A stretch of DNA of 64,000 nt from Tagaea sp. (GTDB lineage: Bacteria > Pseudomonadota > Alphaproteobacteria > CACIAM-22H2): contig OZ257249.1 of the NCBI GenBank assembly GCA_965279565.1, forward strand, positions 2,897,116-2,961,115. Direction: 5' to 3'. The notes below the pieces were generated by a model. It had not been told where the DNA came from and made no database searches. It saw nothing but the letters and a program-made list of their open reading frames with translations. Position 1 is the stretch's first letter. Every line of letters starts with the position of its first letter. Both the position numbers and the translations under genes were made by a program. Below, piece after piece: positions 9,587-25,826 of the stretch.

Positions 9587-11296
9587 TCAGAAGGTCTGGC
9601 CGGCGAGCATCGCGAAATGCTCGACGATCGGACCGAGAGCGAGGGCCGGGAAGAAGCTGAGGCCACCGACGACTAGGATTGTGCCGGCAAGCAGCACGAC
9701 GAACAGCGGGCCATCAGTCGGGAAGGTGCCATCGGAGGCAGGCACGCGCTTCTTGGCAGCAAGCGCGCCAGCGAGTGCGAGCACCGGCACGATGATTGCG
9801 AAGCGTCCGACCAGCATCGCGATCCCGAGCGTGGTGTCCCAGAACGGCACGCTGGCGGTGAGCCCGGCAAAGGCCGAGCCGTTGTTGCCTACGGCCGACG
9901 TGTAGGCATAGAGCGCCTCGGAAAAGCCGTGCGGACCGTCGTTGTTGAGCCCGCCGAGAGCGCCCGGCCAGAGCAGGGCAAGGGCCGTGAACGCCAGGAT
10001 GAAGACCGGTGGCACAAGTACGACGAGGCTGGCAAGCTTGACCTCGCGCGCCTCGATCTTCTTGCCGAGATACTCGGGCGTACGCCCGACCATCAGGCCG
10101 GCAACGAACACTGCGATCACTGCATAGACCAACATGCCGTACAACCCCGAGCCCACGCCGCCGAACACGATCTCGCCAAGCTGGATCATGAACATCGGCA
10201 CGAGGCCACCGAGCGGCGTGAAGCTGTCATGCATTGCATTGACTGAGCCGTTGGAGGCGGCAGTGGTGACTACGGCCCAGATAGCCGACCAGGCAATGCC
10301 GAAGCGGGCTTCCTTGCCTTCCATGTTGCCGTCGGCAGGGTCGAGGCCAAGTGCGATCAGGATCGGGTTGCCGGCAGCCTCCGCGGCGTAGCAGGCGGCA
10401 AGCCCTACAAGCAGCAGCACAGTCATAGTTGCGAGCAGGACGGTTCCCTGGCGCGATGCGCCGACCATCCGGGCGAACGTCACGGTGAGTGCGGCGGGGA
10501 TAGCCAGAATCGCCCATAACGAAAGCAGGTTCGTCCATCCGTTCGGATTTTCGAATGGGTGGGCGGAGTTGGCATTGAAGAAGCCACCGCCGTTGGTGCC
10601 GAGCTGCTTGATCGCAATCTGCGAGGCGACAGGGCCTAGCGCGATCGACTGCGAGGCGCCTTCGAGCGTTGTCGCCTCGACATTGGCCGAAAAGCTCTGT
10701 GGAATGCCGAGTGCGACGAAAGAGATCGCCAGAGCAAGTGACAATGGCAGCAAGACATAGAGGGTTCCGCGTGTCAGGTCCGCCCAGAAATTTCCCACCC
10801 CGCGTGATTCAATGCGCGCAAAGCCGCGCGTCAAAGCCAGTGCCAACGCGATGCCCGTCGCCGCAGATACGAAGTTCTGCGTCGCGAGACCGAACATCTG
10901 CGACAGATGGCTCATCGTCGATTCGCCGCCATAAGACTGCCAATTCGTGTTGGTGACGAAGCTGACCGCCGTATTGAATGCCAAATGCGGGTCGAGCGCG
11001 GCAAGGTCGTTCGGGTTGAGCGGCAAAACGCCCTGCAGGCGAAGCAGCCCATAGAGTAGAACGAAACCGGCTGCATTGAAGGCGAGCATCGCACCGACAT
11101 AGCCGAGCCATCCCTGGTCGCGAGTCGCGTCGATGCCGGCGAACCGGTAGAGATCCACCTCGATGCGTCCGAGGAGCGGGGACAAGAACGTCCGCTCGCC
11201 GGCGAAAACGCGCGCCATATAGACGCCGAGAGGGACAGCACTGGCGAGAACCAGGCCGACGACAAGCAAGATCTGTAGCCATCCCATCGGGGTCAT
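9587..11296 (-). CDS. kdpA: KdpA, K+-translocating subunit
   Basis: 569 aa polytopic membrane protein ([31 protein letters not shown]...). Canonical position between kdpF and kdpB. Confidence 0.95.
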
Positions 11297-11324
11297 GGCG
11301 GGTACTCCGGTTCTCTCGTGTGTT

Positions 11325-11411
11325 TCAGAATTTTTCGGGCGCCAGCAGGGCGACCGCGAGATAGGCGAAAAGGGCGATTGCGACGGCGCTGCCCAGGATC
11401 AGTTCGAACAT
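11325..11411 (-). CDS. kdpF: KdpF, small hydrophobic subunit (28 aa: [28 protein letters not shown])
   Basis: Not in the ORF track. Found by reading the minus strand immediately upstream of kdpA. A single TM peptide ending 29 nt before the kdpA start. Confidence 0.7.
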
Positions 11412-11421
11412 CGGGGCGCCC

Positions 11422-11505
11422 TCACAGCCGCGTGCAGGCGCGCGCGAACAGTGCCATCGCGGCGAACAGTCCACTTCCGAGTACCAAATAGAGAAGGTCT
11501 TCCAT
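11422..11505 (-). CDS. candidate 27-aa hydrophobic leader or small membrane peptide upstream of kdpF (MEDLLYLVLGSGLFAAMALFARACTRL)
   Basis: Not in the ORF track. Strong SD (GGAGGCGGAC-ATG). Stop lies 10 nt before the kdpF ATG. Confidence 0.35.
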   Translation of the reverse strand: MEDLLYLVLGSGLFAAMALFARACTRL

Positions 11506-11610
11506 GTCCGCCTCCAGCGTTGAGGTCGGGACTATGGATCCGGCTGGCGTAGAGGTTCGATGCGGAACTCGGGATCGAGGCGTAAGGATTCTATAAGGGC
11601 AGTTCGTTTT

Positions 11611-11772
11611 CCTTGGTTTCCGCTCATTTCCCTTCGTTGCCGAAAATTATGGAAACCGTCGTTGAAATCATTGAATAAATAGAAGTTTGGGAGACTGGGG
11701 GTCGCAGGTTCGAATCCTGTCGCTCCGGCCATCAAAGAAGCCCGCCGATCGGAACGCCGGTCGGCGGGCTTC
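11611..11772 (+). repeat. repeat family copy C: leader + GGGGGTCGCAGGTTCGAATCCTGTCGCTCCGGCCA + hairpin GCCCGCCGATCGGaacgCCGGTCGGCGGGC
   Basis: Roughly 90% identical to copy A over about 135 nt by eye. Sits between the kdp promoter region and the stop of the threonine-aldolase-family gene. Confidence 0.8.
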
Positions 11773-11792
11773 GAAGTCTTCGATGAAAATCT

Positions 11793-12839
11793 TCAAACGA
11801 TATTCGAGTCTAACTCGACGAGCGTCCTGGCGACATCCGCGGGTGATTTTCCAAGAAGCGTAGGGTTCGCGCGTATCAGAACACGATCTCCATCGACGTC
11901 CCCAAGCACTATGCCGGATTCCCGGGCTTTCACCTTGAAGGTCGCGACGCCGGACTTCGGTTTCAGCCAGACGCAGTTTGTCGGGGCATCTCCCACGGGG
12001 ATCAATGTCGGGCCATCTGTCATCGAGAGCGACTGCGCGAACGCATCGCGCCATTCGAGGCTGCGTTTCCAGTCCGGTTCGAGCCGGTCGATTTCCGCCA
12101 GCACGACGGCGGCGATCGGCCAGAGTTGGGGCAGCGCGCCCCCGTGGCGGCGGCGATCATGTTCGACTCCGTCGAGCAGCTCGATCGGTCCCGCGAGGAC
12201 GGCGCCGAAGGGCAGACCGAACATTTTCCAAAGCGACAGGTAGATCGTGTCGTAGTCGGCGGAAAATTCTGCCATCGACCTGCTGGCTGCCGCTGCGGCG
12301 ATCGGAAGGCGTGCGCCGTCCAAATGCAGGCCGATCCCGAGCTGGTGCGCCGCCGCGATCGTGTCGGCGAGGAGATCGGCCGGGAATGCCTCGTTCCGGC
12401 GGCGACGGACAGGCGTTTCGATGCATATCGCGCCCAGCGACTGGGCGACCTTGCCGGTTCGGGCGCTCGCGGCGGCATCGCGCACCGCCCGGCCCGAGAA
12501 GCCCGCCCCGGTGGGCGTCGCCGCGACAACGGTCAAGCCCTTAACGGCCGCAAGCGAATCGCCCGTGTCGTTCATTACGTGGCTGTCGGGATGCACAAGA
12601 ACGCGGCGTGCACGCGGTCCGCATAGCCGGTCGAGTGCGATCATGTTCGCGAGTGTCCCGGTCGGAAAGAGGACGGCGCGCGCCTTGCCGAGGAGTTTTG
12701 CGAGCGCGGCTTCGCATTCGCGCACGAGCGGCCCCTCGCCGTAGCTGTCGGGTGCCGCAACGCGGTCGAGTGCCGCCGCCAGCCGCTGCGCGAAGCTCGT
12801 ATCGGCATAGGCGCCGTCGACGTCGAGATGGATTGCCAT
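11793..12839 (-). CDS. threonine aldolase / beta-eliminating lyase family PLP-dependent enzyme
   Basis: Real start is the internal ATG (MAIHLDVDGAYADTSF...), 348 aa, with PTGTLANMIALD and SLWKMFGLPFGAV motifs. The listed 958-aa ORF upstream of this is Arg-rich out-of-frame noise. Confidence 0.75.
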   Translation of the reverse strand: MAIHLDVDGAYADTSFAQRLAAALDRVAAPDSYGEGPLVRECEAALAKLLGKARAVLFPTGTLANMIALDRLCGPRARRVLVHPDSHVMNDTGDSLAAVKGLTVVAATPTGAGFSGRAVRDAAASARTGKVAQSLGAICIETPVRRRRNEAFPADLLADTIAAAHQLGIGLHLDGARLPIAAAAASRSMAEFSADYDTIYLSLWKMFGLPFGAVLAGPIELLDGVEHDRRRHGGALPQLWPIAAVVLAEIDRLEPDWKRSLEWRDAFAQSLSMTDGPTLIPVGDAPTNCVWLKPKSGVATFKVKARESGIVLGDVDGDRVLIRANPTLLGKSPADVARTLVELDSNIV

Positions 12840-12850
12840 TCGCTGCTCCC

Positions 12851-14362
12851 TCAGAGGCCCGGCCGCTTTCCGAAGGCCATTGCTGCGGCTTCCGCCGAAA
12901 GCCGCTTGCGATCCGGCTTGTTGGTTGCCGCCAGCGGAATCTCGTCCCTGAACGAGACGAAACGGGGGTGAGCGAAGGCCGGCCCGTTTGCGAGGGCGAA
13001 TCCCTTCACGTCGGCCTCCGTCGCCGCCGTGCCGGGTGTGCGGACCACGAAGGCGAAGGGAAGGGTCCCCTTTACGTCGTCGGGCACCGGCACCACGCAA
13101 GCCTGATGGATTCCGGGCATTCGTTCGAGCAGACGTTCGACTTCGCCTGGCCAGACATTCTCCCCGCCGACGACGAACATGTCGTCCGCGCGTCCGACGA
13201 AATAGAAGAAACCGTTCGCGTCGCGCCGGAAGATGTCGCCCGACCTGTACCAGCCATCCTTCAGGACCTCCGCGGCTTTCGCAGGCAGATTCTTGTAGCC
13301 TTCCATCATCATCGGGTTGTGCATGTAGAGCACGCCCTCGTCGGGTCCGGGGCCCTCGCGCAGTTCGACCTGGCTGCCCGGAACCGGATAGCCGCAGGCC
13401 AGCGGCGGGCGCGGGATGCCGGCGGGATGGATGCCGAAGGGGGCCGGCCCCGCTTCCGTCGTGCCGTAGCTGTTGTTGATCAGCGCCTTGGAGAAGATTG
13501 ACTGGACCTTGTCGATCAGGGCCTGCGTGAGCGGCGCTGAGCCCATCGTGACGTTGGTAACCGAAGAAAAATCTAGACCGCCGATGAGGTCGCGCTCGCG
13601 CGCGACGAGCGCCAGCATCGTCGGCACCGAGGTCAGCCATGTCACCGCGAACCGCTCGATCGCCCGGGCGTAGAGTTTGGCGTCGAACGCAGGCAGCAGG
13701 ACGATGCTCGAGCCGGCAGCAAGGGCACCCTTGATGCTGATCGTTGCGTTCATGTGGAACATCGGCGCGCCGACGACATAGCGGTGGTGCGAACGGTCGC
13801 CGTAGAGCTTCGCCGAGGTCTCCAGCGACCAGCGTTGCGAATCGTGCGACAGGAGCACGCCTTTGGGCATGCCGGTCGATCCCGACGTGTAGAGGATCAT
13901 CGCAAGTTCGCGCGGATCGGGCTCGACCGTATCGAAGGGGCCGGGATCGCGGAGTGTGGCATAACCCCCGTCGTCGAAACCGAAGCCGGGCAGCCCGGCC
14001 GGCCGCAGCGCGGCACGGTCGCGGTCGTAGAAGACCGCACGCAGGCCGGAGTCGGAAACGATATGGTCGACCGTCTCGCGCGCGAGCTTGAACGAGATCG
14101 GGACCGCGACCATGCCCGCACGCATGATGCCGAAATAGGCGTAGAGCAGTTCGAGCCGGTTCAGCGACATAATCCCGATGGCATCTCCGCGCACGAACCC
14201 CTGTGCCAGGAGTCCGCGCGCCACGGCATCGCACTCGCGATCGAAAGCCGCATAGGTCGCCTCGCGCGGCGCGTTCCAGTCGGCAAGCTCGATCAGCGCG
14301 ATCTTGTCGGGGGAGACGGAGGCGTCGAAGCAGCGGCCGAGATTGCGGGATGGGATTGGCAT
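12851..14362 (-). CDS. AMP-dependent synthetase/ligase (acyl-CoA synthetase family)
   Basis: 503 aa from the internal ATG (MPIPSRNLGRCFD...). AMP-binding motif LYTSGSTGMPKGV and the C-terminal lid region are present. Confidence 0.8.
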   Translation of the reverse strand: MPIPSRNLGRCFDASVSPDKIALIELADWNAPREATYAAFDRECDAVARGLLAQGFVRGDAIGIMSLNRLELLYAYFGIMRAGMVAVPISFKLARETVDHIVSDSGLRAVFYDRDRAALRPAGLPGFGFDDGGYATLRDPGPFDTVEPDPRELAMILYTSGSTGMPKGVLLSHDSQRWSLETSAKLYGDRSHHRYVVGAPMFHMNATISIKGALAAGSSIVLLPAFDAKLYARAIERFAVTWLTSVPTMLALVARERDLIGGLDFSSVTNVTMGSAPLTQALIDKVQSIFSKALINNSYGTTEAGPAPFGIHPAGIPRPPLACGYPVPGSQVELREGPGPDEGVLYMHNPMMMEGYKNLPAKAAEVLKDGWYRSGDIFRRDANGFFYFVGRADDMFVVGGENVWPGEVERLLERMPGIHQACVVPVPDDVKGTLPFAFVVRTPGTAATEADVKGFALANGPAFAHPRFVSFRDEIPLAATNKPDRKRLSAEAAAMAFGKRPGL

Positions 14363-14373
14363 CGTGTTCTCCG

Positions 14374-15849
14374 TTATGTGGCAGCGGCCATGCGACCGGC
14401 GATCCGCCCGCCGACGAAACTTTCGGCGATGTTGCCACCCGACATGTAGAGGTGGCCGAACACGCTGCCCAGTTCGCCCGCGACATAGAGATGCGGGACC
14501 GGGCTGCCGAACGCGTCGAGGACCCGTTGCTGGGGGTCGTGGGCAAGCCCGCCTTGCGTGTTCGAGACGATCGGCCAGACGGCAGCCGCCGAGAAGGGCG
14601 GCGTCGCGATCGGCACCATGCTGCCCGGCGGGCGGCCATAGGCGTCGTCCCGGCCGTCGGCACATGCATCGTTCCATGCGGCGACCGTCCGTTCGAGTAC
14701 GGCCGGATCGATGTCGAATTTGGCAGCGATTTCCGAAAGCGTGTCGGCCTGTGTCAGGATGCGGGCATCGAAATCCCGCGGCGTGTTGTCGCGATACCTG
14801 GCGGCCACGCCGGCGTCGTTCCAGGTCGGCGCGCTCAGCGGATAGCGTTCGCGGCCCTTGGCATCGACCAGCATCAGGGACGGAACGCGCGGGAAGCGCT
14901 GGCAGACCGGGTCGAAATGCTCGAGCGCGCGATGCCCGGTATCCTGCATGTAGGGATCGTACTCGTTCATGAAGCGCCGCCCGTCGCGGTCGACGAGGAT
15001 CCAAGTCATCGCGATGTCTTCGCGCAATCCGTCCGCCGGGTTCCAGTCGGGCAGACGCTTGACGCGCACGCCGAACGGATAGGCTGGGTCGGGATGGCGG
15101 AAGCCGTACGATCCGTGGAAGTGCCACATATGCCAGAGCTGCGCGCCGGCGGCCTGCCCCATGCGGATGCCGTCGCCGGTGTTGAACGCGACGGCCGCCG
15201 ACAGGACGGGCTTCAGCACCCAGTGCTGGAGCTGCAACGCCGGGTCGGCTTCGAAGCCACCGCATGCGAGGATCACGCGGCGTGTCGGGATCGATGTCCC
15301 GCCGGCGACGATGCCAGCGGCGGCACCACCGGCCAGTACAAGCCGCTGGGCGGGCGTGCCGAGCCATACCTCGATGCCGCGCCGTTCGACGTTGCGGCGC
15401 ACGACTTCGAAAATGCGTGCACCGGCCGGCGATCCGCGGACGTCCGGGTAGCTCCGGGCGGGATCGAAGCCGGGGAAATCCTCGACATAGGCAAACCCGA
15501 ATGTCCGGTAGCCGGGCAACGGATAATTCGCCGGCGAGGGGCGCACGTCGAGCTTGGCACCGACCGATTCGCACAGGGTGCGCGCGAAGTCGGCAAGCCC
15601 GGCCATGCCATTCGCCAGCTCGGCGAGGACGGCTTCCGGCGTGGTCCCGGCGTTGGTTGCGACGAGGTAGGCAAGTGCTTCGTCCGCGTTTTCGGCAATG
15701 CGCAGGCCGCCGGCCGAGCACACCGAGATGCCGCCGGGAACATTGCCTTTCTCGACGATCAGCACGCGCGCACCGGCATCGTGCGCGGCGATCGCCGCCA
15801 CGCCGCCGGCAAAGCCGTAGCCGACGACGATGACGTCGTATCCGGTCAA
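14374..15849 (-). CDS. FAD-dependent oxidoreductase (FAD_binding_2 / KstD- or fumarate-reductase-flavoprotein-like)
   Basis: N-terminal dinucleotide-binding motif YDVIVVGYGFAGGVAAIAAHDAGARVLIVEK. No in-frame ATG upstream, so the start is inferred as a TTG that overlaps the upstream stop (TTGA). Confidence 0.65.
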   Translation of the reverse strand: MTGYDVIVVGYGFAGGVAAIAAHDAGARVLIVEKGNVPGGISVCSAGGLRIAENADEALAYLVATNAGTTPEAVLAELANGMAGLADFARTLCESVGAKLDVRPSPANYPLPGYRTFGFAYVEDFPGFDPARSYPDVRGSPAGARIFEVVRRNVERRGIEVWLGTPAQRLVLAGGAAAGIVAGGTSIPTRRVILACGGFEADPALQLQHWVLKPVLSAAVAFNTGDGIRMGQAAGAQLWHMWHFHGSYGFRHPDPAYPFGVRVKRLPDWNPADGLREDIAMTWILVDRDGRRFMNEYDPYMQDTGHRALEHFDPVCQRFPRVPSLMLVDAKGRERYPLSAPTWNDAGVAARYRDNTPRDFDARILTQADTLSEIAAKFDIDPAVLERTVAAWNDACADGRDDAYGRPPGSMVPIATPPFSAAAVWPIVSNTQGGLAHDPQQRVLDAFGSPVPHLYVAGELGSVFGHLYMSGGNIAESFVGGRIAGRMAAAT

Positions 15850-16601
15850 GTTCCCAGCGTCCGCAGGCCGGCGACGAGCTCGCCGACCATGGTCGCCAGC
15901 ACGGTCCGTCCCTTTTCGGCGGTCGCCGCGCGCGGATCGCCGCGCACGCCCGAAACACTGTAGTCGGGGCCCGCGGCGGGATCGTCGCGGAAAATCGACG
16001 GTACGTAGAAGACCGTGTTGGGCTCGCTCAGCATGTTGCCGTAGTCTTCGATCGCCCGGTCGAGATGCACGCGCTCGGGCGCGATCGCCATGACCACCGA
16101 CGTTTCCATCTCGTCGGCATGCCCGCCCAGCTTCTGGCGCATCAGCCCGCGATTGGCGCTCCCGAGCGCACGAATATTGGCCACGGGAATGCGCACGCCT
16201 TTTTTCTCGAGAGTCTCGCGCACGACGACGGTGACCGGCCCCTCGGTCGACACGCCGGTGTTGACGATGGCGATGCGCCGCGCCTTGTGCCGAATCAGGC
16301 CGTCGACGATGTCGTGCAGCACGGCGGCAAAAGTTTCCGGGCGCAGATGCTGGCTGCCAGGGTAGCCGACGAAGGCGGGGTAGTAGCCGAAATCGACGAC
16401 GGGTGCCACCAGTACGGGAAGCTCTTTTGCGACACCGTCGCACAGCGCCCGGGCGACGAGATAGTCGGTCTGCATGGGCAGATGCGGCCCATGCTCCTTC
16501 GCCCGCGCGCCGATGGGGATCAGGACGGTCGCGTGCTCGATCCGGGCGGCGACTTCCGGCCAGGTCAGGTCTTCGATCCAGGCACCGGGCGTGACGGTCA
16601 T
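15846..16601 (-). CDS. creatininase-family amidohydrolase
   Basis: 251 aa from the internal ATG (MTVTPGAWIEDLTWPEVAARIEHATVLIPIGARAKEHGPHLPMQTDY...). GGAG SD present. ATGA overlap with the upstream hydrolase gene. Confidence 0.8.
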   Translation of the reverse strand: MTVTPGAWIEDLTWPEVAARIEHATVLIPIGARAKEHGPHLPMQTDYLVARALCDGVAKELPVLVAPVVDFGYYPAFVGYPGSQHLRPETFAAVLHDIVDGLIRHKARRIAIVNTGVSTEGPVTVVVRETLEKKGVRIPVANIRALGSANRGLMRQKLGGHADEMETSVVMAIAPERVHLDRAIEDYGNMLSEPNTVFYVPSIFRDDPAAGPDYSVSGVRGDPRAATAEKGRTVLATMVGELVAGLRTLGT

Positions 16602-17689
16602 AGGTAAAGCTCCAGGAAGCGGCGGATGTCGGGTGCCCAGATATGCTGGGCGGTGCTTTCGAACAGATGGCCTTCCCAGGGCAGGAAGCCGTAAGGCGGG
16701 TAGATCTTCGACCAGACGACGCGCCCGTTGCCGGCAAGCGATGCCGCCAGCTCCTTGGTCGGACGGATGCTGTAGTCGTTTTCGGCCTGGATCAGGAAGA
16801 GCGGCATCGTCACGCGAGATGCGGCACCAAGCATCAGTTCGCGCAGCTTCGGCGTGTTGTCCCAGTTCATCGCGGCACCGGCGAAGTCGATCGCACAGGT
16901 GAAGCGGTCGGTCTTCGAGGCGGCGAGGAGTGTGTTGGTCCCGCCGAACGACGAGCCCATCACACCGATGTGATCGGCGCGGATCTCCGGCATGGCGGCG
17001 ACGCAGTCGAGTGCGGCCAGCACGTCGGAACTTTCGCGATCGAGGCGGGTGGAGACCTGCTGGTCGTATTCGGGCGTGCCGAACGGGGCGCTCGCCTCCT
17101 CGCGCCAGGCGGGGCCGGGCGAATTCCCGTAGCCGCGCCGGTGCGGCAGGAACGACGCGATTCCCCACGACATCAGCAGGGCCGCACCTTCAGGCCGGCT
17201 CACGTCGAGCGAGCCCTGCTGGATGCCGCTGCCATGGTTGCGGATCAGGCAGGGGAACGGGCCGCTACCGGGCGGAAGGTAGAGATAGCCCGCAAGCTCG
17301 CGCCCGTCGGACGTGAATTTCACCTCGCGCGGCACGATGGGCAGGCCGTGCAGTTCGACCGGCCGGATGCCGCTTGCGAGTGGTGCATCGTCCTCGACGA
17401 CGACCACGCGGTCGAACGCGTCGATGTTCGCGCCCATTTCCTTACGAACCACCTCGAACGCCGGGCTTGCCGCGCGCGCTGCCAGATCGGCGGCATGGCT
17501 GGCCCTGTCCGGGAAATCGCATTCCCAAGTCACGTCCGGCACGCGACCGGTGCTGCCTTCGGCGCGCACGAAGACGCGACCGGAACGCAGGCCGATGGAA
17601 AGGCGCACTGCGCAGGCCCGCCGGCGGGTCGCAAGGACGGCTTCGGCCCGTCCGGGTTTGGCGAAGTAGTGCGTGCGTTCGATCAGCAT
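16598..17689 (-). CDS. two-domain alpha/beta hydrolase (dienelactone-hydrolase-like C-terminus, nucleophile motif GVMGSSFGG) with a small N-terminal ABM/Dabb-like domain
   Basis: Start trimmed to MLIERTHYFAKPG. DLH-type motifs LPPGSGPFPCLIRNHGSG and GSSFGG. Confidence 0.65.
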   Translation of the reverse strand: MLIERTHYFAKPGRAEAVLATRRRACAVRLSIGLRSGRVFVRAEGSTGRVPDVTWECDFPDRASHAADLAARAASPAFEVVRKEMGANIDAFDRVVVVEDDAPLASGIRPVELHGLPIVPREVKFTSDGRELAGYLYLPPGSGPFPCLIRNHGSGIQQGSLDVSRPEGAALLMSWGIASFLPHRRGYGNSPGPAWREEASAPFGTPEYDQQVSTRLDRESSDVLAALDCVAAMPEIRADHIGVMGSSFGGTNTLLAASKTDRFTCAIDFAGAAMNWDNTPKLRELMLGAASRVTMPLFLIQAENDYSIRPTKELAASLAGNGRVVWSKIYPPYGFLPWEGHLFESTAQHIWAPDIRRFLELYL

Positions 17690-17699
17690 CGGGTTTCCG

Positions 17700-18634
17700 T
17701 CAGTTCGGGAAATGGCAGCGGACGAGATGGCTGGCACGGCGCTCGACGAGGACGGTATCCTCGATGCGGCAGCGCGCCTGCGCCTTGGGGCAGCGCGGAT
17801 GGAAATGGCATCCGGTCGGCCGGTCCCGCGCGCTCGGAATCTCGCCGGCAAGCGGCGGCGGTGCAATGGAATCCGCCGTCGGCTCGGGGACGGCCGCGAT
17901 CAGCGCCTGGGTATAGGGGTGGGCGGGCCGCTCGAAGATGTCGGCTTCGCTGCCAAGTTCGACGATGCGGCCCAGATACATCACGGCGACCCGGTCGCCG
18001 ACATGCCGGACGGCGCCGAGGTTGTGCGAGATGAACAGCATGCTGAGTCCGAACTGTGCGCGCAGGTCGCGCAGCAGGTTCAGGACCTGGGCCTGGACGG
18101 ACACGTCGAGCGCCGACGTCGCCTCGTCGCAGACGACGATGCGCGGATTGGAGGCGAGAGCGCGCGCGATCGCGATGCGTTGGCGTTGTCCGCCCGAGAA
18201 GGCATGGGGATAGCGTTCGCCCGCATCCGCCGGCATGCCGACGATCGACAGCATCTCGTCCACGCGCCCGGCGCGCGCGCCGGCGTCGACGCCGGCGGCG
18301 CGCATCGGTTCGGCGACGATGTCGCGCACGCGCATGCGGGGATTGAGCGAGGAAACGGGATCCTGGAACACCGCTTGGATCTGGCGACGCAGCGGCCGCA
18401 TACGGGATTCGTCGAGATCCGTCACGTCCTGCCCCGCGATCTCGATGCGGCCGGCGGTGGCTGGCAGGAGCTTGAGGATCATGCGGGCAAGCGTGCTCTT
18501 GCCGCAGCCGGACTCGCCGACCACGCCGAGGGTCTCTCCCTCGGCCAGTGAAAAGCTGACGTCCTCGACGGCGACAAGCGGCCGCACGCCGCTGCCGAAC
18601 GTGCGGCCGAGGCCACTAACCTTCAGCACGTCGC

Positions 18635-18638
<4 letters not shown>
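17700..18638 (-). CDS. peptide/nickel ABC transporter ATP-binding protein (DppF/OppF-like)
   Basis: GTG start overlapping the upstream stop (GTGA). Walker A GESGCGKST, signature FSGGQRQR, and a C-terminal oligopeptide-ABC domain. Confidence 0.85.
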
Positions 18639-19630
<992 letters not shown>

Positions 19631-20503
19631 CTAGCGCCCCTGCAGCTTGGGATCGAGCGCGTCGCGCAGCCCGTCGCCCAGCAGGTTGAACCCGATGATC
19701 GTCGTGCCGAGGGCCAGGCTGCCGAACAAGGCGAGGTAGGGGTCCGTGCGCAGGGCGGGCAGGCCGTCGCGGATCATGCCGCCCCAGCTTGCCTGCGGCT
19801 CCTGGATGCCGAGGCCGAGGAAGGAGAGCGTCGCCTCCGCCATGATGATGAAGCCCACGCCGACCGACGCGCGCACCAGCAGCGGTGCCGCGATGTTCGG
19901 CAGGAGGTGGCGCCAGAAGATCATCGCCGTCGAGGTGCCCGCGACGATGGCGGCATCGATATAGAGCTCCTCGCGGATCACCAGCACGAACGAACGCGTC
20001 AGGCGCGTGATGCCGGGCCACCAGACGAGTGCCAGGGAGACGACGACGGTGAGCGGGCCAGCCCCCATGACGGAAGCGACGAGGATCGCGATGACGACTT
20101 CCGGGAAGGCGAGCATGATGTCGACGATGCGCATCAGGATCGAGTCCGTGCGCCCGCCGACATAGCCCGCGAGCATCCCCAGGGTCGTTCCCACGGCGAG
20201 CGTTATCGCGAGCACCGCGCTTGCGACGAGCAGCGATGTCTGCGCACCGGCGATCAGGCGGCTGAGAATGTCGCGTCCCAGCTTGTCCGTTCCCAGGAGA
20301 TTGGGGCTGCCGGGCACGGCCCACGTGTTGAACAGGTCGGTCTCTTCCGGCGAATGCGGTGTCAGCAGCGGGGCCAGCAGGGCGACCGCGACGACGAACG
20401 CGACGATGGTGCCGCCGATGACCACGTTTCGCTGGCGGGCGAGCCGGCGTGTCAACCGGCGCCAGTCGAGGCCCGGGGCAGGTGCCATGGCGGTCGAACT
20501 CAT
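19631..20503 (-). CDS. peptide ABC transporter permease (DppC-like)
   Basis: 290 aa polytopic protein with a BPD_transp_1 EAA-like loop (AGYVGGRTDSILMRIVDIMLAFP). Confidence 0.85.
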   Translation of the reverse strand: MSSTAMAPAPGLDWRRLTRRLARQRNVVIGGTIVAFVVAVALLAPLLTPHSPEETDLFNTWAVPGSPNLLGTDKLGRDILSRLIAGAQTSLLVASAVLAITLAVGTTLGMLAGYVGGRTDSILMRIVDIMLAFPEVVIAILVASVMGAGPLTVVVSLALVWWPGITRLTRSFVLVIREELYIDAAIVAGTSTAMIFWRHLLPNIAAPLLVRASVGVGFIIMAEATLSFLGLGIQEPQASWGGMIRDGLPALRTDPYLALFGSLALGTTIIGFNLLGDGLRDALDPKLQGR

Positions 20504-21438
20504 GCCTGGACCATGCGCTGGCGGATGCGCGGATCGATGATCGCATAGGCGACGTCGACCAGCAGGTTGATCAGCACGAAGAAAGCGGTGAACAGCATGA
20601 CGATGGCCATCGCGACCGGATAGTCGCGCGCGAACACCGAATCGATGGCCATCCGGCCCAGCCCCGGAATGTTGAAGATCGTCTCGACGACGAACGTGCC
20701 GCTGATGAGCCCGCCGAAAATGATGCCCATCGAGGTGAGCAGCGGAACCATTATGTTGCGCAGCGCATGGCGCAGGATCACGACCGGCTCGCTCAGGCCC
20801 TTCGCCCGGGCCGTGCGGATGTAATCCTGCCCGAGCACTTCCAGCATGAAGGTGCGGGTGAGGCGGGCGATATAGGCCGCACTCGGAATCGTCAGGATCA
20901 GAACCGGCAGCACGGCCTGGTCGAGACGGCCCCAGCCGGCGACCGGCAGCACGCCGAGCTTGATCGAGAACGCATAGACGAGAAACGTCGCGACGGCGAA
21001 ATTCGGGACCGACAGGCCGGCGACGAGGATCAGGATGATCGCTGTGTCGGTCGCCGTGTTGCGCCGGATCGCCGCAATCACGCCAGCAAGCGTGCCGATC
21101 GAGGCGCCGAGGCCGAGTGCGGCGAGCGCGAGCAGTGGGCTGATCTTCAACCCGTCCTGCAGCACCTCGACGACGGGAATACGGACATATCGGTAGGACA
21201 TGCCGAAATCACCGGTCAGGACGCCGCCGACATAAACGGCGAACTGCTCCCACATCGGCCGGTCGAGGCCGTATTCGGCACGCAGCCGGGCGGCCATTTC
21301 CTCGTTCGAGGAGTGGTCGCCCAGCATAACCATTACGGGATCGCCTGGCAGCGCATAGGTGGCAAGAAAGGTCGCGATGAGCACCACCGCAAGCACCGGC
21401 ACGATCATCACCAGCCGCCAGACGACGAACCGCAGCAT
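20500..21438 (-). CDS. peptide ABC transporter permease (DppB-like)
   Basis: 312 aa. ATGA overlap with the downstream permease gene. Confidence 0.85.
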   Translation of the reverse strand: MLRFVVWRLVMIVPVLAVVLIATFLATYALPGDPVMVMLGDHSSNEEMAARLRAEYGLDRPMWEQFAVYVGGVLTGDFGMSYRYVRIPVVEVLQDGLKISPLLALAALGLGASIGTLAGVIAAIRRNTATDTAIILILVAGLSVPNFAVATFLVYAFSIKLGVLPVAGWGRLDQAVLPVLILTIPSAAYIARLTRTFMLEVLGQDYIRTARAKGLSEPVVILRHALRNIMVPLLTSMGIIFGGLISGTFVVETIFNIPGLGRMAIDSVFARDYPVAMAIVMLFTAFFVLINLLVDVAYAIIDPRIRQRMVQA

Positions 21439-21453
21439 GTGTGGGTTACGCCT

Positions 21454-22998
21454 TTACTTGATCTCCGTCGCTATGAAGCGGTCAAATCCGAAAGGCGTGA
21501 CGGACGCGTTAGTCACGTTGGGCTTGATGAGCGCTACGTTCGCCGGCATGGGAAGGGGGGCCGCTCCTATGTCTTCGATATAGACCATCTCGGCCTGCCG
21601 GTAGAGCGCGAAGCGCTTCGTGTTGTCGACGGTGCCGACGGCTTCGTCGATAAGCGCATCGAACTTGGCATTGCTCCAGCGTCCCCGGTTATACGGGCTC
21701 TTCGAGTGCCACATCTGCTGGAGATAGTACATCGCGTCCGGATAGCCCGACGTCCAGCCCCAGGGGAAGAACGCGATCTCGCCGGCGTTCATCCCGCGGA
21801 TGAAGGTGGCGCGCTCCGCCACGTTGACGTTGACCTGCATGCCCAGCGTGCGGTTCAGCTCGTTGGCATAGTAGGTGAGCTCGTCCTTGAAGACGGCCGT
21901 GCAGGTGATGTCGATCGGCGGCAGGCCCCGGCCGCCCGGATATCCTGCCTCGGCAAGCAGCTTCTTGGCGCCTTCCGGATCGTATTTCGGCTTGGGCAGG
22001 TCGGCGAAATAGCCGGCCACGCCCGGCGTCGTGACGCCATGGAGCTGGAAGGCGGCGTTGTCGTAGAAGCCGCGGATCATCGCGTCGCGGTTGATCGCCA
22101 TCGAGATCGCCTCGCGCACGCGCTTGTCCTTGAACGGCGCGTAGACGTTGGCGTTCATGCCGAGATAGCGCGACTGCGCGCGCGGCACGACATGGCGCTC
22201 CTTCTGCTTGCTGGCGTCGCGCATCACGCGGCGCAACGTGTTCTCCTGCACGTCGAGAAAGTCCAGCTCGCCGGCTTCGTACTGCGACAGGGCCGTGTCG
22301 CCGCTGGGGATGACGAGGAAGCGGATCCCGTCGATCTTGGGCGAACCGGCCCAGTACGCCTTGTTCGCCTCGATCTCGACATGCACGCCGCGGCGCCATT
22401 CCTTGAACTTGTAGGGGCCGGTGCCGGCCGAGACACTGCGGACCCAGTCCACGCCTTTTTCAGCGACGATACCGGAATCCATGAACCAGATCGGATAGAT
22501 CGGGAACAGCACGTCGGGCTTCGTGAAGCGCACTTCGATCGTGTGGTCGTCGACGATCTTGATGCCGGAAAGCTCCTTGGTCGTCCCGGCCTTGACGGCG
22601 GCGACCCCCACGATGTTGGCGACGTAGCCCGCACCCAGGCCCGCCTTGGTGTCGGGGGCGGCGAGCTGCTCCATCGTGTACTTCACGTCCTTGGCCGTGA
22701 AGGTCCGGCCGCTATGGAACTTGACGTTCTTGCGCAGATTGAATCGGAACCCGTGCTCGCCCGGCAGCGCGGTCCAGGATTCGGCCAGCACGTTGATGAT
22801 CTTGCCGTCCGGCGTGTAGTCCGTGAAACCTTCATAGACGTTGCGGATGACGCGGCCGGCGATGATCTCGGAATAGGTGATCGGATCCATCATTGCCGGA
22901 TCGCCGGTGACGTTGATCCGGAGCGTCTTCGCGTCGACCGGGGTCGCCAGGGCCAGGGCCGCCAGCATGACGGCAAACGCGCTGCTGATGTACTTCAT
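21454..22998 (-). CDS. ABC transporter substrate-binding protein, family 5 (peptide/opine/nickel type)
   Basis: 514 aa with a signal peptide (MKYISSAFAVMLAALALATPVDA) and SBP_bac_5 architecture. Confidence 0.85.
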   Translation of the reverse strand: MKYISSAFAVMLAALALATPVDAKTLRINVTGDPAMMDPITYSEIIAGRVIRNVYEGFTDYTPDGKIINVLAESWTALPGEHGFRFNLRKNVKFHSGRTFTAKDVKYTMEQLAAPDTKAGLGAGYVANIVGVAAVKAGTTKELSGIKIVDDHTIEVRFTKPDVLFPIYPIWFMDSGIVAEKGVDWVRSVSAGTGPYKFKEWRRGVHVEIEANKAYWAGSPKIDGIRFLVIPSGDTALSQYEAGELDFLDVQENTLRRVMRDASKQKERHVVPRAQSRYLGMNANVYAPFKDKRVREAISMAINRDAMIRGFYDNAAFQLHGVTTPGVAGYFADLPKPKYDPEGAKKLLAEAGYPGGRGLPPIDITCTAVFKDELTYYANELNRTLGMQVNVNVAERATFIRGMNAGEIAFFPWGWTSGYPDAMYYLQQMWHSKSPYNRGRWSNAKFDALIDEAVGTVDNTKRFALYRQAEMVYIEDIGAAPLPMPANVALIKPNVTNASVTPFGFDRFIATEIK

Positions 22999-23095
22999 CG
23001 CCGTTCTCCTTGCGCGTCCGGCACGGAGGCGCCGGAAACTCGTTGATCACAAATACTGCGTCCTATTGTGCGGTGCGTCAACGAGCTCCTGAAGG

Positions 23096-24109
23096 TTACG
23101 GCGCCACGATCACCTTGCCGAAAACGCCCCGTTCGTCGAGGAGCCGCATCGCCTCGCCGGCGCGCTCCAGAGGGAAGCGCTCGGGATGGAGGACGGGCTT
23201 CAAGCTCCCGTCCTTGACCATCGCCAGGAGGGCAAGCACGTCGGCACGGGCCCAGCCGTTCGAGCCGACGATGTTGAGCTCGAATGTCCAGATGAAGCGG
23301 ATATCCTCGGGCGGGTCGTAGCCGGCCGTGGCGCCGCACGTCAGCATGCGGCCGTCGCGACGCAGCACGCGCAGCGCCTTGGTCCATGTGTCGCCGCCGG
23401 TGAAATTGACGACCACGTCGATGCCGCCTTCGTCGCGCCGCGACGTCCGCGCGCGGCCGAACAGCCGGTGGCATTCGGCCACCCAATCCGTCGTCGCATA
23501 GTTGATCCCGACATCGGCACCCAGGGCACGCAGGTGTTCGAGCTTCGTCTCGCTGGACGTGCACGCGACCACGCGAGCGCCGGCGCGGCGGGCCAGTTGC
23601 ACGCAGCAGGTTCCCACGCCGCCCGAAGCGCCGAGGATCAGGATGGTCTCGCCGGCGCGCAGTTTTCCGCGCTCCAGCACCATGCGATGCGCGGTGCCAT
23701 AGGCCGTGGGCAGCGCTGCCGCTTCGGCATAGCCGATCGCCGGATCGAGTGGGACGCACATGTGCGCCGGGACGCGGACGAGTTCGGCAAGGCCGCCATC
23801 GAAAGTCTCGCCCATGAAGCCGCGCTCGGCGCGGTTGATCGGATCGATCAGGACCCTGTCGCCGGGTCGGAAGTCCGTGACCGCACTGCCGACCGCTTCG
23901 ATGTCGCCGGCCGCGTCGATTCCCATGATGAGCGGGAACGGGATCTTGATCCCGGGCATGCCCTTTCGCGTGAAGACGTCGTGGTAATTGAGCGCGCAGG
24001 CGCGCACGCGCACGATCACGTCGCCGGGACCGGGCTGCGGATCGCGGTAGCCCGCCTCGAATGTCAGCTTCTCGAGGCCGCCATGTTCGCGGATGACGAC
24101 GGCGCGCAT
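23096..24109 (-). CDS. MDR-family zinc-type alcohol dehydrogenase / quinone oxidoreductase
   Basis: 337 aa with GroES-like N-terminus, Rossmann motif LILGASGGVGTCCVQLA, and catalytic/structural Cys and His residues. Confidence 0.8.
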   Translation of the reverse strand: MRAVVIREHGGLEKLTFEAGYRDPQPGPGDVIVRVRACALNYHDVFTRKGMPGIKIPFPLIMGIDAAGDIEAVGSAVTDFRPGDRVLIDPINRAERGFMGETFDGGLAELVRVPAHMCVPLDPAIGYAEAAALPTAYGTAHRMVLERGKLRAGETILILGASGGVGTCCVQLARRAGARVVACTSSETKLEHLRALGADVGINYATTDWVAECHRLFGRARTSRRDEGGIDVVVNFTGGDTWTKALRVLRRDGRMLTCGATAGYDPPEDIRFIWTFELNIVGSNGWARADVLALLAMVKDGSLKPVLHPERFPLERAGEAMRLLDERGVFGKVIVAP

Positions 24110-24122
24110 CGGCTCTCCTTAT

Positions 24123-24758
24123 CTACGGACCAGTGAGAACCAGCTTGCCACGCGGCGTCTCCAGTTCGGCAAGGAAACCTGGGGTGAGCGCCCGCTCGAC
24201 GCGGACCGGAACACTCAGGGCGCCATAGATCGCCTCGAGCCGTTCGCGGTCGGGATGGAGGGCGACGAAATTCAGCAGCCGGAGGCCACGCGGTGTCGAG
24301 CCGGATGGATGGGGGGAGTTGCCCCAGTCGATCGCGAACGGGACCGAGTCGCCGAAAGACTCGTCGCCGAAATAGAGGATCGACCAGTCGAGCCGCACGC
24401 CGTCGGCCCGCGTTCGGCCCATCGAGACCGGTCCGCGGATCGGGATGCCGGCCGATTGCGCCGCAAGGCGTATCGCCGCGAGATCGTCGCTGCGCACGGA
24501 GAAAGCGGTCAGTCCGGGGCGCGGCTGGGCCGCGATGCGTGCGCCGCGCGTTCCGGCGAGATCCTGCGCCGGATCCGGCGCGATGATCTCGAAATATAGG
24601 CCGTCACCGAGCGACAGCAGGCTGTTGCGTGTGCCGAAGCCCGCATGCACGCCGCCGCGCGCCGGCTTCACGCCGGACAGCACCGTGAAAAGTCGCTCGC
24701 CGGCTTCGAGATCGGGTGCGCCCCAGAGAATGTGATCGAGTTCCACCTTCACCCGCAC
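24123..24758 (-). CDS. VOC (glyoxalase/bleomycin-resistance/dioxygenase) superfamily protein
   Basis: 211 aa with paired beta-alpha-beta-beta-beta module pattern (LDHILWGAPDLEAGERLF...). Weak family-level call. Confidence 0.55.
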   Translation of the reverse strand: MRVKVELDHILWGAPDLEAGERLFTVLSGVKPARGGVHAGFGTRNSLLSLGDGLYFEIIAPDPAQDLAGTRGARIAAQPRPGLTAFSVRSDDLAAIRLAAQSAGIPIRGPVSMGRTRADGVRLDWSILYFGDESFGDSVPFAIDWGNSPHPSGSTPRGLRLLNFVALHPDRERLEAIYGALSVPVRVERALTPGFLAELETPRGKLVLTGP

Positions 24759-24764
24759 TTTCCT

Positions 24765-25190
24765 TCAGGTCTTGCTGAGATAGACGCCGCGTCCGCTCGC
24801 GACAAGCGCCCCGGCCTCGTCGTGGATGCGGGCCTCGGCTGTGCATAGTGTGCGCCCGAGTTTGAGAATACAGGACTTTGCCAGAAGCGGGCCAGGCATG
24901 GCCGGCCGATGGAAGTCGACGCGCATGTCGACCGTGGGCAGGCCATGGCCGAGACGAGCCGCTATCGCATAGTCGCCGGCGATGTCGACGAGCGCGCCGA
25001 GAATGCCGCCATGCGTATACCCGATCCCGGCGACAGAAACGAATTCGGGCCGCCAAGGCATCAGTAACTCGACTCCTTCCTTTGACAAGGCGTGAAGGCG
25101 CACACCAAGCCATTGGTGAAACGGAGATCGGCGCACCATTTCGTCCAGCGCCCCGAATGTGATCGAGGTATTGTCGGCCGAGGCGGTCAT
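24765..25190 (-). CDS. PaaI/YbgC-type hotdog-fold thioesterase
   Basis: 141 aa with the HGG motif region (GIGYTHGGILGALVDIAGDYA), typical of PaaI-family thioesterases. Confidence 0.75.
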   Translation of the reverse strand: MTASADNTSITFGALDEMVRRSPFHQWLGVRLHALSKEGVELLMPWRPEFVSVAGIGYTHGGILGALVDIAGDYAIAARLGHGLPTVDMRVDFHRPAMPGPLLAKSCILKLGRTLCTAEARIHDEAGALVASGRGVYLSKT

Positions 25191-25625
25191 TCCAGTCGCA
25201 AGGCCATTCTGGCGCTACCTGTCCGCTGACATTCAGGTGGATGGAGGGAGAGAGCTTCCCCCCGTTCCGGGTGGGATTCAATAACTTAAGCGCTTCGGTG
25301 CCTCCGTCGTCGACCTAACCGACACGCCCCCCGCGACGCCGCTGATCGGGCGAGGCCCGCACGTCAATCTCCATCACAATCTCGTGCACGCCGTTCAGGG
25401 CGGCGATGTCGATCTTACGGCGTCGATGGTGGAATGCTCGTGACGGCCGACATTCACGAACTGATCGCCCGTATACATTCGATCGTGCCGGGGCTTCTGT
25501 CGCGCCGCGCATCCTATCTGGCGTCGGACGACAGGATACCGTCGGTATGCACATCGGTATGTACAACGGTGGCTTGACCTTCTTGCTGGCATTTCGATGG
25601 CACGGCTCTCGGAGTGTATTCATTC

Positions 25626-25820: not shown

Positions 25821-25826
25821 CGCTTT

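Follow-up and report, generated by a model that had tools for sequence, protein, structure and literature searches.

A predicted thirteen-gene catabolic locus in Tagaea sp. combining a peptide-type importer with a divergent creatininase-family hydrolase

A densely packed set of genes lies on the minus strand of a 64,000-nucleotide stretch of DNA from Tagaea sp. (Alphaproteobacteria; assembly GCA_965279565.1, contig OZ257249.1, forward-strand positions 2,897,116 to 2,961,115), referred to here as the window. Ten genes, numbered g1 to g10 in their 5' to 3' order, occupy positions 11793-22998 of the window. They encode an ATP-binding cassette (ABC) importer of the Dpp/Opp type (g1-g5), a serine hydrolase (g6), a creatininase-family hydrolase (g7), a flavoprotein (g8), an acyl-coenzyme A (acyl-CoA) ligase (g9), and a pyridoxal phosphate (PLP) enzyme of the threonine aldolase family (g10). 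Three further minus-strand genes upstream encode a thioesterase, a Glyoxalase_3 protein, and an MDR-family oxidoreductase. Because these three genes recur with the cluster elsewhere and move with it as a block, the predicted functional locus extends to 13 genes (11793-25190).

Continuous minus-strand coding frames were found over 11793-22998 by analysis of GC content at third codon positions together with a start-codon survey. A preliminary description of this DNA had given the same span, which is exact: the stop codon of g10 has its first base at position 11793, and the ATG of g1 has its A at 22998. It had counted eleven genes; we found ten, its own list also sums to ten, and no gap fits another open reading frame (ORF). 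The G+C content is approximately 0.60-0.69 across the window, so long spurious ORFs are common, and the cluster shows no compositional anomaly. The spacers between consecutive genes measure 15, -4, 0, -4, 10, -4, -4, 11, and 11 bp, in agreement with the 0-15 bp spacers or 4-nt overlaps described before. The three overlaps reported earlier are all real (ATGA at 16598-16601, TTGA at 15846-15849, and GTGA at 18635-18638), and a fourth start/stop overlap, ATGA at 20500-20503, was identified in addition. The gene order, including the 4-nt overlaps, is identical in NCBI's own gene calls for Terrarubrum flagellatum. From this packing, the ten genes are predicted to form one co-directional, translationally coupled unit of catabolic type. 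The earlier proposal of a single unit thus stands for the ten tightly coupled genes; the functional locus is larger than was proposed (13 genes), and its genes are unequally linked. The family labels assigned before agree with Pfam (SBP_bac_5, two BPD_transp_1, two ABC_tran plus oligo_HPY, Peptidase_S9/DLH, Creatininase, FAD_binding_2, AMP-binding, and Beta_elim_lyase).

The importer is encoded by five consecutive genes and is complete, with every diagnostic domain of a PepT-family (Dpp/Opp-type) system above its Pfam cut-off. The g1 gene (21454-22998) encodes a family 5 substrate-binding protein (SBP) of the Dpp/Opp/Nik type, 514 aa in length (SBP_bac_5, E 1.6e-81), whose N-terminus MKYISSAFAVMLAALALATPVDA resembles a signal peptide. 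The permeases are of the DppB/OppB type (g2; 20500-21438, 312 aa; BPD_transp_1 and BPD_transp_1_N) and the DppC/OppC type (g3; 19631-20503, 290 aa; BPD_transp_1 and OppC_N), and the ATG of g3 overlaps the stop of g2 within the ATGA. Two ATPases with ABC_tran and oligo_HPY domains follow. The first, of the DppD/OppD type (g4; 18635-19630, 331 aa), is separated from g3 by a 0-bp spacer, and the second, of the DppF/OppF type (g5; 17700-18638, 312 aa), has a putative GTG start overlapping the upstream stop (GTGA). The 4-nt overlap of the two ATPase genes is also present in the Terrarubrum gene calls. The g1 protein is only distantly related to OppA, DppA, NikA, GsiB, and AgaA, and all NCBIfam equivalogs score far below cut-off. 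Its best relatives in the PDB are OppA-type and unnamed SBPs, the AgaA binding protein being among them (6hlx, E 1e-33). An aspartate in a YPD motif, close to the position equivalent to OppA Asp419 in a low-similarity alignment to OppA, is nearly invariant among 50 SBP orthologues.

The serine hydrolase encoded by g6 (16598-17689, 363 aa) matches Pfam Peptidase_S9/DLH weakly. It carries a GSSFG motif, and its predicted triad, Ser247/Asp305/His341, is invariant among 24 orthologues. The AlphaFold2 (AF2) model has a pLDDT of 91, and its top Foldseek matches are the catalytic domains of S9 peptidases, acylaminoacyl peptidases, and S9 carboxypeptidases, with approximately 21% identity; feruloyl and acetyl-xylan esterases rank behind the S9 peptidases. 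Residues 1-100 form a conserved beta-alpha-beta ferredoxin-like domain that has no Pfam match and is modelled with pLDDT >90. This domain stands where classical S9 peptidases have a beta-propeller.

The neighbouring g7 gene (15846-16601, 251 aa), whose ATG overlaps the upstream stop (ATGA), encodes a clear member of the creatininase family (PF02633; E 1.7e-50, 172 bits against a cut-off of 31). Its AF2 model (pLDDT 81.5) matches creatininase structures with a TM score of approximately 0.75 (E ~1e-14, ~26% identity). Scores against the curated members of the family are all below cut-off: 110.1 bits for the creatininase equivalog TIGR04448 (cut-off 235), 96.6 bits for MftE (TIGR03964; cut-off 172), which is the second-best family match, and 56 bits for IolN (cut-off 245). 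An MftE/mycofactocin identity was rejected on this score, and no radical-SAM or mycofactocin family was found among the genes scanned in and beside the cluster. Compared with the Pseudomonas putida creatininase (1j2t/3a6h), g7 retains H36, D45, H178, and E183. Four other positions are replaced, namely E34 by K35, H120 by G116, E122 by S118, and W174 by a glycine that lies beside a 3-residue deletion. K35, G116, and an NTGVSTE motif are invariant among 18 g7 orthologues. In the P. putida structures, we take metal 1 to be bound by Glu34, Asp45, and His120, metal 2 by His36, Asp45, and Glu183, His178 to be catalytic, and Trp174 to be the tryptophan that sandwiches the substrate. On these assumed roles, g7 appears to have lost two of the three metal-1 ligands along with part of the creatinine pocket. 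Creatinine is an unlikely substrate of g7, because two metal-1 ligands and the substrate tryptophan are replaced. A search of a protein collection retrieved 1,699 relatives of g7, of which the top 120 share at least 59% identity. The public name of the g7 orthologues, "creatinine amidohydrolase", is probably wrong for the whole branch.

The flavoprotein encoded by g8 (14374-15849, 491 aa) is a stand-alone FAD_binding_2 protein (E 9e-43) without a haem or FMN-binding domain. Its proposed TTG start, within the TTGA overlap, is backed by orthologues that start at the same codon: this codon is TTG in the two closest relatives (loci L002 and L003), ATG in L004, and part of an ATGA overlap in many distant orthologues. 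The sole downstream alternative is a GTG eight codons further on, which would cut the GxGxxG FAD motif (DVIVVGYGFAGG dinucleotide-binding motif). The TTG start is well supported, since orthologues begin at that codon and the next start deletes part of DVIVVGYGFAGG. The designation "KstD-like" in the preliminary description proved too specific. The best NCBIfam matches are TcuA (146.8 bits, cut-off 369) and KstD (142 bits, cut-off 789, and 125 bits, cut-off 788), the KstD matches span only part of the protein, and fumarate reductase scores are likewise far below cut-off. Among the residues that we take to bind the dicarboxylate in Shewanella Fcc3 (His365, Arg402, His504, and Arg545, Shewanella numbering), His365 is kept, His504 is replaced by Asn and Arg545 by Met, and Arg402 falls in an unaligned gap. 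As His504 and Arg545 are absent, a fumarate reductase identity was rejected for g8. A KstD identity was rejected because the equivalog scores are far below cut-off. TcuA was rejected on its score as well, and no TcuB-type membrane iron-sulfur family was found among the 13 locus genes.

The ligase encoded by g9 (12851-14362, 503 aa) belongs to the ANL superfamily (AMP-binding, 225.6 bits; AMP-binding_C, 54.2 bits). Among PDB structures, it is closest to feruloyl-CoA synthetase (E 1e-55), FadD13, and 4-coumarate-CoA ligases; since no NCBIfam equivalog is reached, substrate specificity is not assignable. The last gene, g10 (11793-12839), encodes a fold-type-I PLP enzyme of the threonine aldolase family with 348 aa (Beta_elim_lyase, E 1.7e-29; 103.5 bits, cut-off 27), and the putative PLP lysine lies in SLWKMFGLPFG. 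It scores 101.9 bits against the GntG-family aldolase (cut-off 230) and 56.5 bits against the low-specificity L-threonine aldolase (cut-off 312), both below cut-off, and its PDB relatives are L-allo-threonine aldolases (E ~1e-19).

The three upstream genes begin with a hotdog-fold (4HBT/PaaI-type) thioesterase of 141 aa (24765-25190; 4HBT, E 3e-14), which scores 82 bits against NCBIfam TIGR00369, above the cut-off of 36.6. It is followed by the Glyoxalase_3 protein of the VOC superfamily (24123-24758, 211 aa, GTG start; PF13468, E 3e-33), for which no NCBIfam match was found, and by the MDR-family NAD(P)H oxidoreductase of the zinc-ADH fold (23096-24109, 337 aa; ADH_N and ADH_zinc_N). The MDR protein is of the quinone-oxidoreductase/enoyl-CoA-reductase type (acryloyl- or crotonyl-CoA-reductase). 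None of its NCBIfam matches reaches the cut-off; the scores are 181 bits for PIG3 quinone reductase, 148 for crotonyl-CoA carboxylase/reductase, 138 over the full length for archaeal acryloyl-CoA reductase, and 114/100 for YhdH/AcuI. Enoyl-CoA reductases and carboxylases are included among its PDB matches. The spacers among these three genes are 13 and 6 bp, and 97 bp separate the MDR gene from g1.

None of the ten proteins g1 to g10 scores above any curated NCBIfam equivalog cut-off. Literature searches in which creatininase was paired with terms for clustering, catabolism, acyl-CoA, diketopiperazines, lactams, dienelactone hydrolase, or PF02633 returned nothing relevant besides papers on MftE, and no description of the cluster was found in the collection searched. 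The view that the genes match no textbook pathway is borne out by both results. The enzyme combination of the cluster is uncharacterised yet widespread, while all of its parts come from familiar families and follow a standard catabolic design.

The 97-bp spacer (22999-23095, minus strand) contains a candidate promoter, TTGACG-N18-AGTATT, read from the sequence before the SBP gene. In an alignment of the spacer among Tagaea relatives (75% nucleotide identity), TTGAC and A.T.TTTG boxes are the only conserved blocks. Approximately 20 nt past the last stop, RNA folding predicts an intrinsic-terminator-like hairpin at 11737-11772 on the minus strand (GAAGCCCGCCGA...TCGGCGGGCUUC followed by UUUGAU), with a free energy of -35.4 kcal/mol and a z-score of -4.33; none of 200 shuffled sequences folds as well. 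A strict consensus scan for promoters and terminators called no promoters and returned terminators at chance level, the terminal hairpin being missed because its T-run is short. The probable start of transcription is the TTGAC-N18-AnTnTT motif preceding the SBP gene, and the probable end is the hairpin that follows g10. As this motif is kept while the rest of the spacer has diverged, the ten genes may be a transcript of their own, and the thioesterase, Glyoxalase_3, and MDR genes may form a separate or read-through unit.

A pattern scan of genomes, with one genome per species, identified 128 genomes with a g7 orthologue, and 80 loci were fetched and examined. The loci were chosen through the g7 homologue, and their gene content was determined by tblastn searches with the window proteins and by independent homology-supported clustering of ORFs. 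The 80 loci come from Tagaea, other Rhodospirillales, Hyphomicrobiales, Acetobacteraceae, Beta- and Gammaproteobacteria, Methylomirabilota/Rokubacteria, and Acidobacteriota, and the closest g7 orthologue (98%) is from a Tagaea metagenome-assembled genome. Gene counts were taken from the 43 loci flanked on each side by 6.5 kb or more. The importer is present in most of them (SBP in 36 of 43, permeases in 37-38, ATPases in 36-37), as is the g6 hydrolase (35 of 43). The flavoprotein follows with 29 of 43 and the ligase with 28 of 43, the latter in two identity classes (~36% and 52-77%). The MDR reductase (24/43), the thioesterase (19/43), the aldolase (15/43), and the Glyoxalase_3 protein in the form seen in the window (10/43) are less frequent. 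A longer Glyoxalase_3 relative (family F10) occurs in approximately 18 further loci, where it usually adjoins a ligase or MDR gene. The most constant pairing is that of the importer with the g7 homologue, all loci having been selected via g7. Cluster genes are nearly all on the same strand in the 43 loci, and the order importer-g6-g7-g8 is found in most of them, across at least five phylum- or class-level lineages.

The accessory genes are arranged more freely. Hoeflea, Nitratireductor pacificus, and Pelagibius share the order FAD protein-aldolase-Glyoxalase-thioesterase-MDR-ligase, and one Tagaea clade and some Betaproteobacteria carry ligase-MDR-Glyoxalase upstream of the SBP gene. The acyl-CoA ligase, MDR oxidoreductase, Glyoxalase_3/VOC protein, and hotdog thioesterase thus constitute a "CoA module" that recurs in shuffled order. 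Recurrence of the accessory genes in shuffled order indicates that they are functionally linked. Minimal forms consist of the importer, g6, and g7 only (Methylomirabilota) or, on Nitratireductor chromids, of a GntR/UTRA regulator, the importer, and g7 with the aldolase directly after it. In three loci (L058, L059, and L078) the g7 orthologue is followed directly by ligase-Glyoxalase_3, with the thioesterase and MDR genes alongside, and there is no Dpp importer, hydrolase, or flavoprotein. Judged by eye, neighbouring genes in these three loci resemble a sulfatase, a Rieske oxygenase, a PhyH-like dioxygenase, a PotD-type SBP, and a glutamine-synthetase-like gene. An M24 creatinase/prolidase-like gene follows the flavoprotein gene in Terrarubrum, L011, L031, and L069. 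Divergently transcribed Lrp/AsnC regulators are present in approximately nine loci, in line with an amino-acid-like effector. Only one of 72,556 records in a plasmid collection carries the cluster, a Nitratireductor chromid, which argues against an opine-type plasmid trait.

Comparison within Tagaea indicates that the locus is kept as a block. The window and L002 share 92% nucleotide identity over 25503-11612, a 13.9-kb block comprising the 13 genes and flanking non-coding DNA. In L002, the thioesterase gene is immediately preceded by kdpD-kdpE, and a Sel1-repeat gene lies downstream of the block; in the window, a metallophosphoesterase gene and sugar-ABC genes lie upstream and the kdp genes downstream. 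L003 and L004 match the window across the block only. Since the block is kept while the flanks change among Tagaea genomes, the 13 genes are treated as one unit.

Copies of a repeat of approximately 170 nt bracket both the 13-gene block and the kdp operon. At least five full or nearly full copies and one fragment occur in the 64-kb window, all in one orientation (minus strand) and mostly just past operon ends. Copy A (11604-11778; nhmmer score 190) closes the block, and the homology with L002 ends within it at 11612. Copy B (25616-25793; nhmmer score 185) lies between the metallophosphoesterase and thioesterase genes; L003 has a copy at the equivalent place, where L002 has kdpD-kdpE. The other copies are C (3166-3312), C2 (3359-3525), and D (50372-50527), and the fragment is at 35604-35654. 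Copies in the relatives were located at 14824-14998 in L002, 756-933 in L003, and 14830-14906 in L004. The repeat is tripartite. A terminator-like hairpin, with a stem that varies in sequence by copy yet stays paired, forms the first part. The second is a highly conserved tRNA-Pro-like 3' half on the plus strand, comprising a variable loop, the T-arm GGTTCGAATCC, an acceptor strand, and ACCA (11697-11731 in copy A). The third is a conserved stem-loop tail of approximately 100 nt. The assignment to tRNA-Pro was made by eye, against what we take to be typical tRNA-Pro 3' sequences. ARAGORN predicted no tRNA or tmRNA in the window, and an Rfam search of 11000-26000 gave only sub-threshold chance matches; a "tRNA-Cys" called by ARAGORN inside the L004 flavoprotein gene was taken as a false positive. 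A scan of a metagenome collection with the tail motif retrieved 77 stretches, among which a hidden Markov model of the element gave only four weak partial matches. These matches are regarded as chance, and the repeat looks lineage-restricted.

The order of the block and the kdp genes is permuted between the two genomes (window 3468-4554 and 11612-25503 against L002 1-14989). L002 has kdpD-kdpE, block, and repeat, and the window has repeat B, block, repeat A, kdp, and repeats C2 and C, with a microhomology of approximately 7 nt at the L002 junction. The arrangement of these sequences suggests an operon-scale relocation near repeats. The repeat may be a recombination site or a lineage-specific intergenic repeat that promotes rearrangement.

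The kdpFABCDE operon lies downstream of the locus, past the hairpin, and no regulator gene adjoins the cluster. Immediately upstream of kdpA, the minus strand contains a pair of small hydrophobic ORFs, at 11422-11505 and 11325-11411. A 28-aa KdpF-like peptide is encoded by one of them, and the other, placed before it, would encode the 27-aa peptide MEDLLYLVLGSGLFAAMALFARACTRL. On the other side, the minus-strand region 25827-30963 contains the metallophosphoesterase gene, preceded by a CUT1-type ABC importer (TOBE-domain ATPase, two permeases, and an SBP_bac_1/8 protein). These genes are co-directional with the cluster, with repeat copy B in between. A second catabolic cluster on the plus strand (37327-49412) encodes a GntR/FCD regulator, a CUT1-type sugar ABC importer, two paralogous PF12831 FAD_oxidored proteins, a second SBP, an SDR, an MR_MLE enolase-superfamily enzyme, and an RraA-like aldolase, a set typical of sugar-acid utilisation. 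Elsewhere in the window, a 765-aa ORF (853-3150, plus strand) encodes a hybrid PAS-histidine kinase whose further domains are two receivers and a LuxR/GerE output, and a tripartite tricarboxylate transporter (TctA and TctC) is encoded at 50853-53750 on the minus strand, with repeat copy D approximately 330 nt downstream of tctA.

Our preferred reading, to which we give even odds, is that the locus takes up a small peptide-like organic nitrogen compound and degrades it, first hydrolysing a blocked or cyclic amide and then processing the acid part in a CoA-dependent manner. A peptide-like compound is suggested by the importer type, the S9-like fold of g6, the occasional M24 peptidase, the Lrp/AsnC regulators, and the PLP aldolase. 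The constant presence of a dedicated creatininase-fold hydrolase implies that it would be no ordinary peptide. The substrate would be a peptide-like amide beyond the reach of ordinary peptidases (for example N-blocked, cyclic, or a lactam). The N-acylated or cyclic amino-acid-derived compound suggested in the preliminary description is still a plausible candidate, whereas creatinine itself is an unlikely one. The g7 enzyme would make the committing hydrolysis of the amide or ring, and the S9-like hydrolase g6 would cut a second amide or ester bond. The flavoprotein would oxidise or desaturate one of the products, and could either supply or remove unsaturation. The ligase would turn a carboxylic-acid fragment into a CoA thioester, and the MDR enzyme would reduce a C=C bond with NAD(P)H. 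The VOC protein possibly epimerises or isomerises the CoA ester, and the thioesterase would release the acid. Finally, the PLP aldolase would split a beta-hydroxy amino-acid fragment into glycine and an aldehyde. A more far-reaching version is put forward tentatively. In it, a peptide-like natural product, cyclic or N-blocked, would be broken down by a catabolic route not described before, with g7 as a new functional branch of the creatininase fold with a remodelled metal site (Lys35, Gly116), on a 13-gene cassette that changes position in Tagaea and is bounded by repeats derived from the 3' part of tRNA-Pro.

Several points weigh against the proposed uptake and degradation of a peptide-like compound. 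Each proposed enzymatic step is read from the protein families, whose characterised members share 20-35% identity with the locus proteins. Amide cleavage by g7 is not certain, since creatininase-family enzymes include the C-C hydrolase IolN. Neither a direction nor an electron partner can be assigned to the flavoprotein reaction, and a ligase and a thioesterase in one pathway require a transient CoA ester to be assumed. The position equivalent to the amino-group anchor, OppA Asp419 or DppA Asp408, is Gly in g1 and G or D among the 50 orthologues, in the same low-similarity alignment; this variation is neutral as to a free N-terminus of the ligand. The aldolase is absent from approximately two-thirds of the loci and the CoA module from approximately one-third; these genes may serve lineage-specific side branches and not one linear pathway.

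Other explanations were weighed against the same evidence. Degradation of cyclic dipeptides (2,5-diketopiperazines) or small lactams is a specific version of the reading above, in which the importer takes up the ring, g7 opens it, g6 or an M24 peptidase cleaves the dipeptide, and the remaining enzymes treat modified side chains. The dipeptide/oligopeptide-type importer, the cyclic amidohydrolase fold of creatininase, the proximity of g6 to S9 peptidases, the M24 peptidase genes behind the flavoprotein gene in the four loci named above, and the Lrp/AsnC regulators all agree with it, and the minimal variants need just one or two hydrolases. However, it leaves unexplained the flavoprotein and the module of ligase (28/43), MDR (24/43), VOC, and thioesterase (19/43) genes, and the literature search found nothing joining creatininase and diketopiperazine; we regard it as rather unlikely. 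In another explanation, the compounds are conjugates of alpha,beta-unsaturated (e.g., hydroxycinnamic) acids with amino acids or amines, which would be hydrolysed, converted to CoA esters, reduced at the double bond, and released, with the aldolase taking the amino-acid part. In its favour, the ligase has feruloyl-CoA synthetase and 4-coumarate-CoA ligases as its best solved relatives, the MDR enzyme is similar to reductases of enones and enoyl-CoA, the flavoprotein has weak matches to vinyl-phenol reductase and other enoate-type reductases, the g6 model also matches ferulic-acid esterases, and the ligase, MDR, and VOC genes adjoin in many loci. These likenesses are at the superfamily level only (at most ~30% identity, far below curated cut-offs). 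FadD13 nearly equals the score of feruloyl-CoA ligase, S9 peptidases outrank the esterases, and the cluster carries no aromatic-ring catabolic genes, so that this explanation appears unlikely.

The remaining explanations are less probable still. A cleavage of alicyclic rings (inositol-like compounds or cyclic beta-diketones) would make g7 an IolN-like C-C hydrolase and the MDR protein an IolM-like dehydrogenase, with an SBP that binds a sugar-like ligand; family 5 binding proteins of some bacteria do bind sugars. The weak matches of g7 to IolN (56 bits), of the MDR protein to IolM (74 bits), and of the flavoprotein to 4-oxocyclohexanecarboxylate dehydrogenases point in this direction. The IolN and IolM scores are, however, much weaker than the creatininase/MftE and quinone/enoyl-reductase scores of the same proteins, and the Lrp/AsnC regulators, the S9-like fold, the M24 peptidase, and the PLP aldolase indicate amino-acid chemistry, which makes an alicyclic substrate improbable. 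That the cluster is a creatinine/creatine utilisation operon, with a genuine creatininase followed by oxidation, is what the Pfam Creatininase match (E 1.7e-50) and the JGI annotation of the orthologues as "creatinine amidohydrolase" would suggest, and a creatinase-like M24 gene follows in a few loci. Against this stand the 110 bits under a cut-off of 235 and ~26% identity to creatininase, the replacement of Glu34, His120, and Trp174 by Lys, Gly, and Gly (on the residue roles assumed above), the absence of creatinase and sarcosine oxidase genes from the window, and the peptide type of the importer. We consider such an operon highly improbable. A chance juxtaposition of an ordinary dipeptide permease operon with unrelated housekeeping enzymes might be argued from the abundance of Dpp/Opp operons, from the frequency of co-directional packing in GC-rich genomes, and from the strict consensus scan, which gave no delimiting promoter or terminator. 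It is contradicted by the comparative data, namely the conserved order in most of the 43 loci, the kept overlaps, the recurrence of accessory genes in shuffled order, and the block retained with changing flanks, and its probability is very slight.

If the proposed degradation of a peptide-like compound is correct, a neighbourhood present in at least 128 bacterial species from freshwater, marine, soil, and wastewater environments would represent a new route for an apparently common organic nitrogen compound. It would also provide the first function for a large branch of the "creatininase family", and renaming that branch would have practical value for annotation. The altered metal site of g7 raises the biochemical question of whether the enzyme uses one metal or two, and of the role of the lysine.

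Among known systems, creatinine degradation (CrnA, creatinase, and sarcosine oxidase) shares the fold and family of the key hydrolase with the Tagaea locus. In the few loci with an M24 creatinase-like gene and the flavoprotein, the likeness extends to the succession of ring opening, second hydrolysis, and flavin oxidation. In contrast, g7 scores below the creatininase cut-off and has lost two of three presumed metal-1 ligands and the Trp174 counterpart, and g8 belongs to FAD_binding_2 and not to the DAO/sarcosine-oxidase family. Creatinine degradation has no counterpart to the CoA module and the aldolase, and the locus also has a peptide-type ABC importer. MftE, which acts in mycofactocin maturation, shows that the creatininase fold is able to cleave a peptide bond next to a lactam. 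The score of g7 against MftE is below cut-off, however, with no radical-SAM match among the cluster enzyme genes and no mycofactocin genes seen, and the importer context argues for catabolism rather than cofactor synthesis.

The importer has the five-component architecture and all diagnostic domains of Dpp/Opp importers (TC 3.A.1.5); it differs from them in that g1 is distant from DppA, OppA, NikA, and GsiB and in that the system is always tied to a creatininase-family enzyme. Agrobacterium Ti-plasmid opine operons (agropinic-acid aga and mannopine) combine a PepT-family importer with a family 5 SBP, lactam opening, and a flavin-dependent oxidoreductase. The Tagaea locus resembles them in coupling an importer and SBP of these families to a putative ring-opening enzyme and a flavin oxidoreductase. 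Unlike the locus, the opine operons use an aga lactamase of the hydantoinase type and opine oxidases of the DAO type, whereas the locus is chromosomal, nearly absent from plasmids, and found in free-living aquatic and soil lineages. The CoA module recalls routes in which an acid is activated, transformed, and released as in 4-chlorobenzoate dehalogenation (ligase, dehalogenase, and 4HBT thioesterase), acrylate detoxification (PrpE and AcuI), and the ethylmalonyl-CoA pathway (Ccr and an epimerase). The VOC fold is that of methylmalonyl-CoA epimerase. The locus shares with these routes an ANL ligase, an MDR enzyme resembling enoyl-CoA reductases, a VOC-fold protein, and a 4HBT thioesterase. It differs in that no locus member reaches an equivalog cut-off, the N-terminal extension that Ccr-type carboxylases have is missing from the 337-aa MDR protein, the Glyoxalase_3 protein belongs to a VOC subfamily other than that of known epimerases, and the module is attached to an importer and hydrolases.

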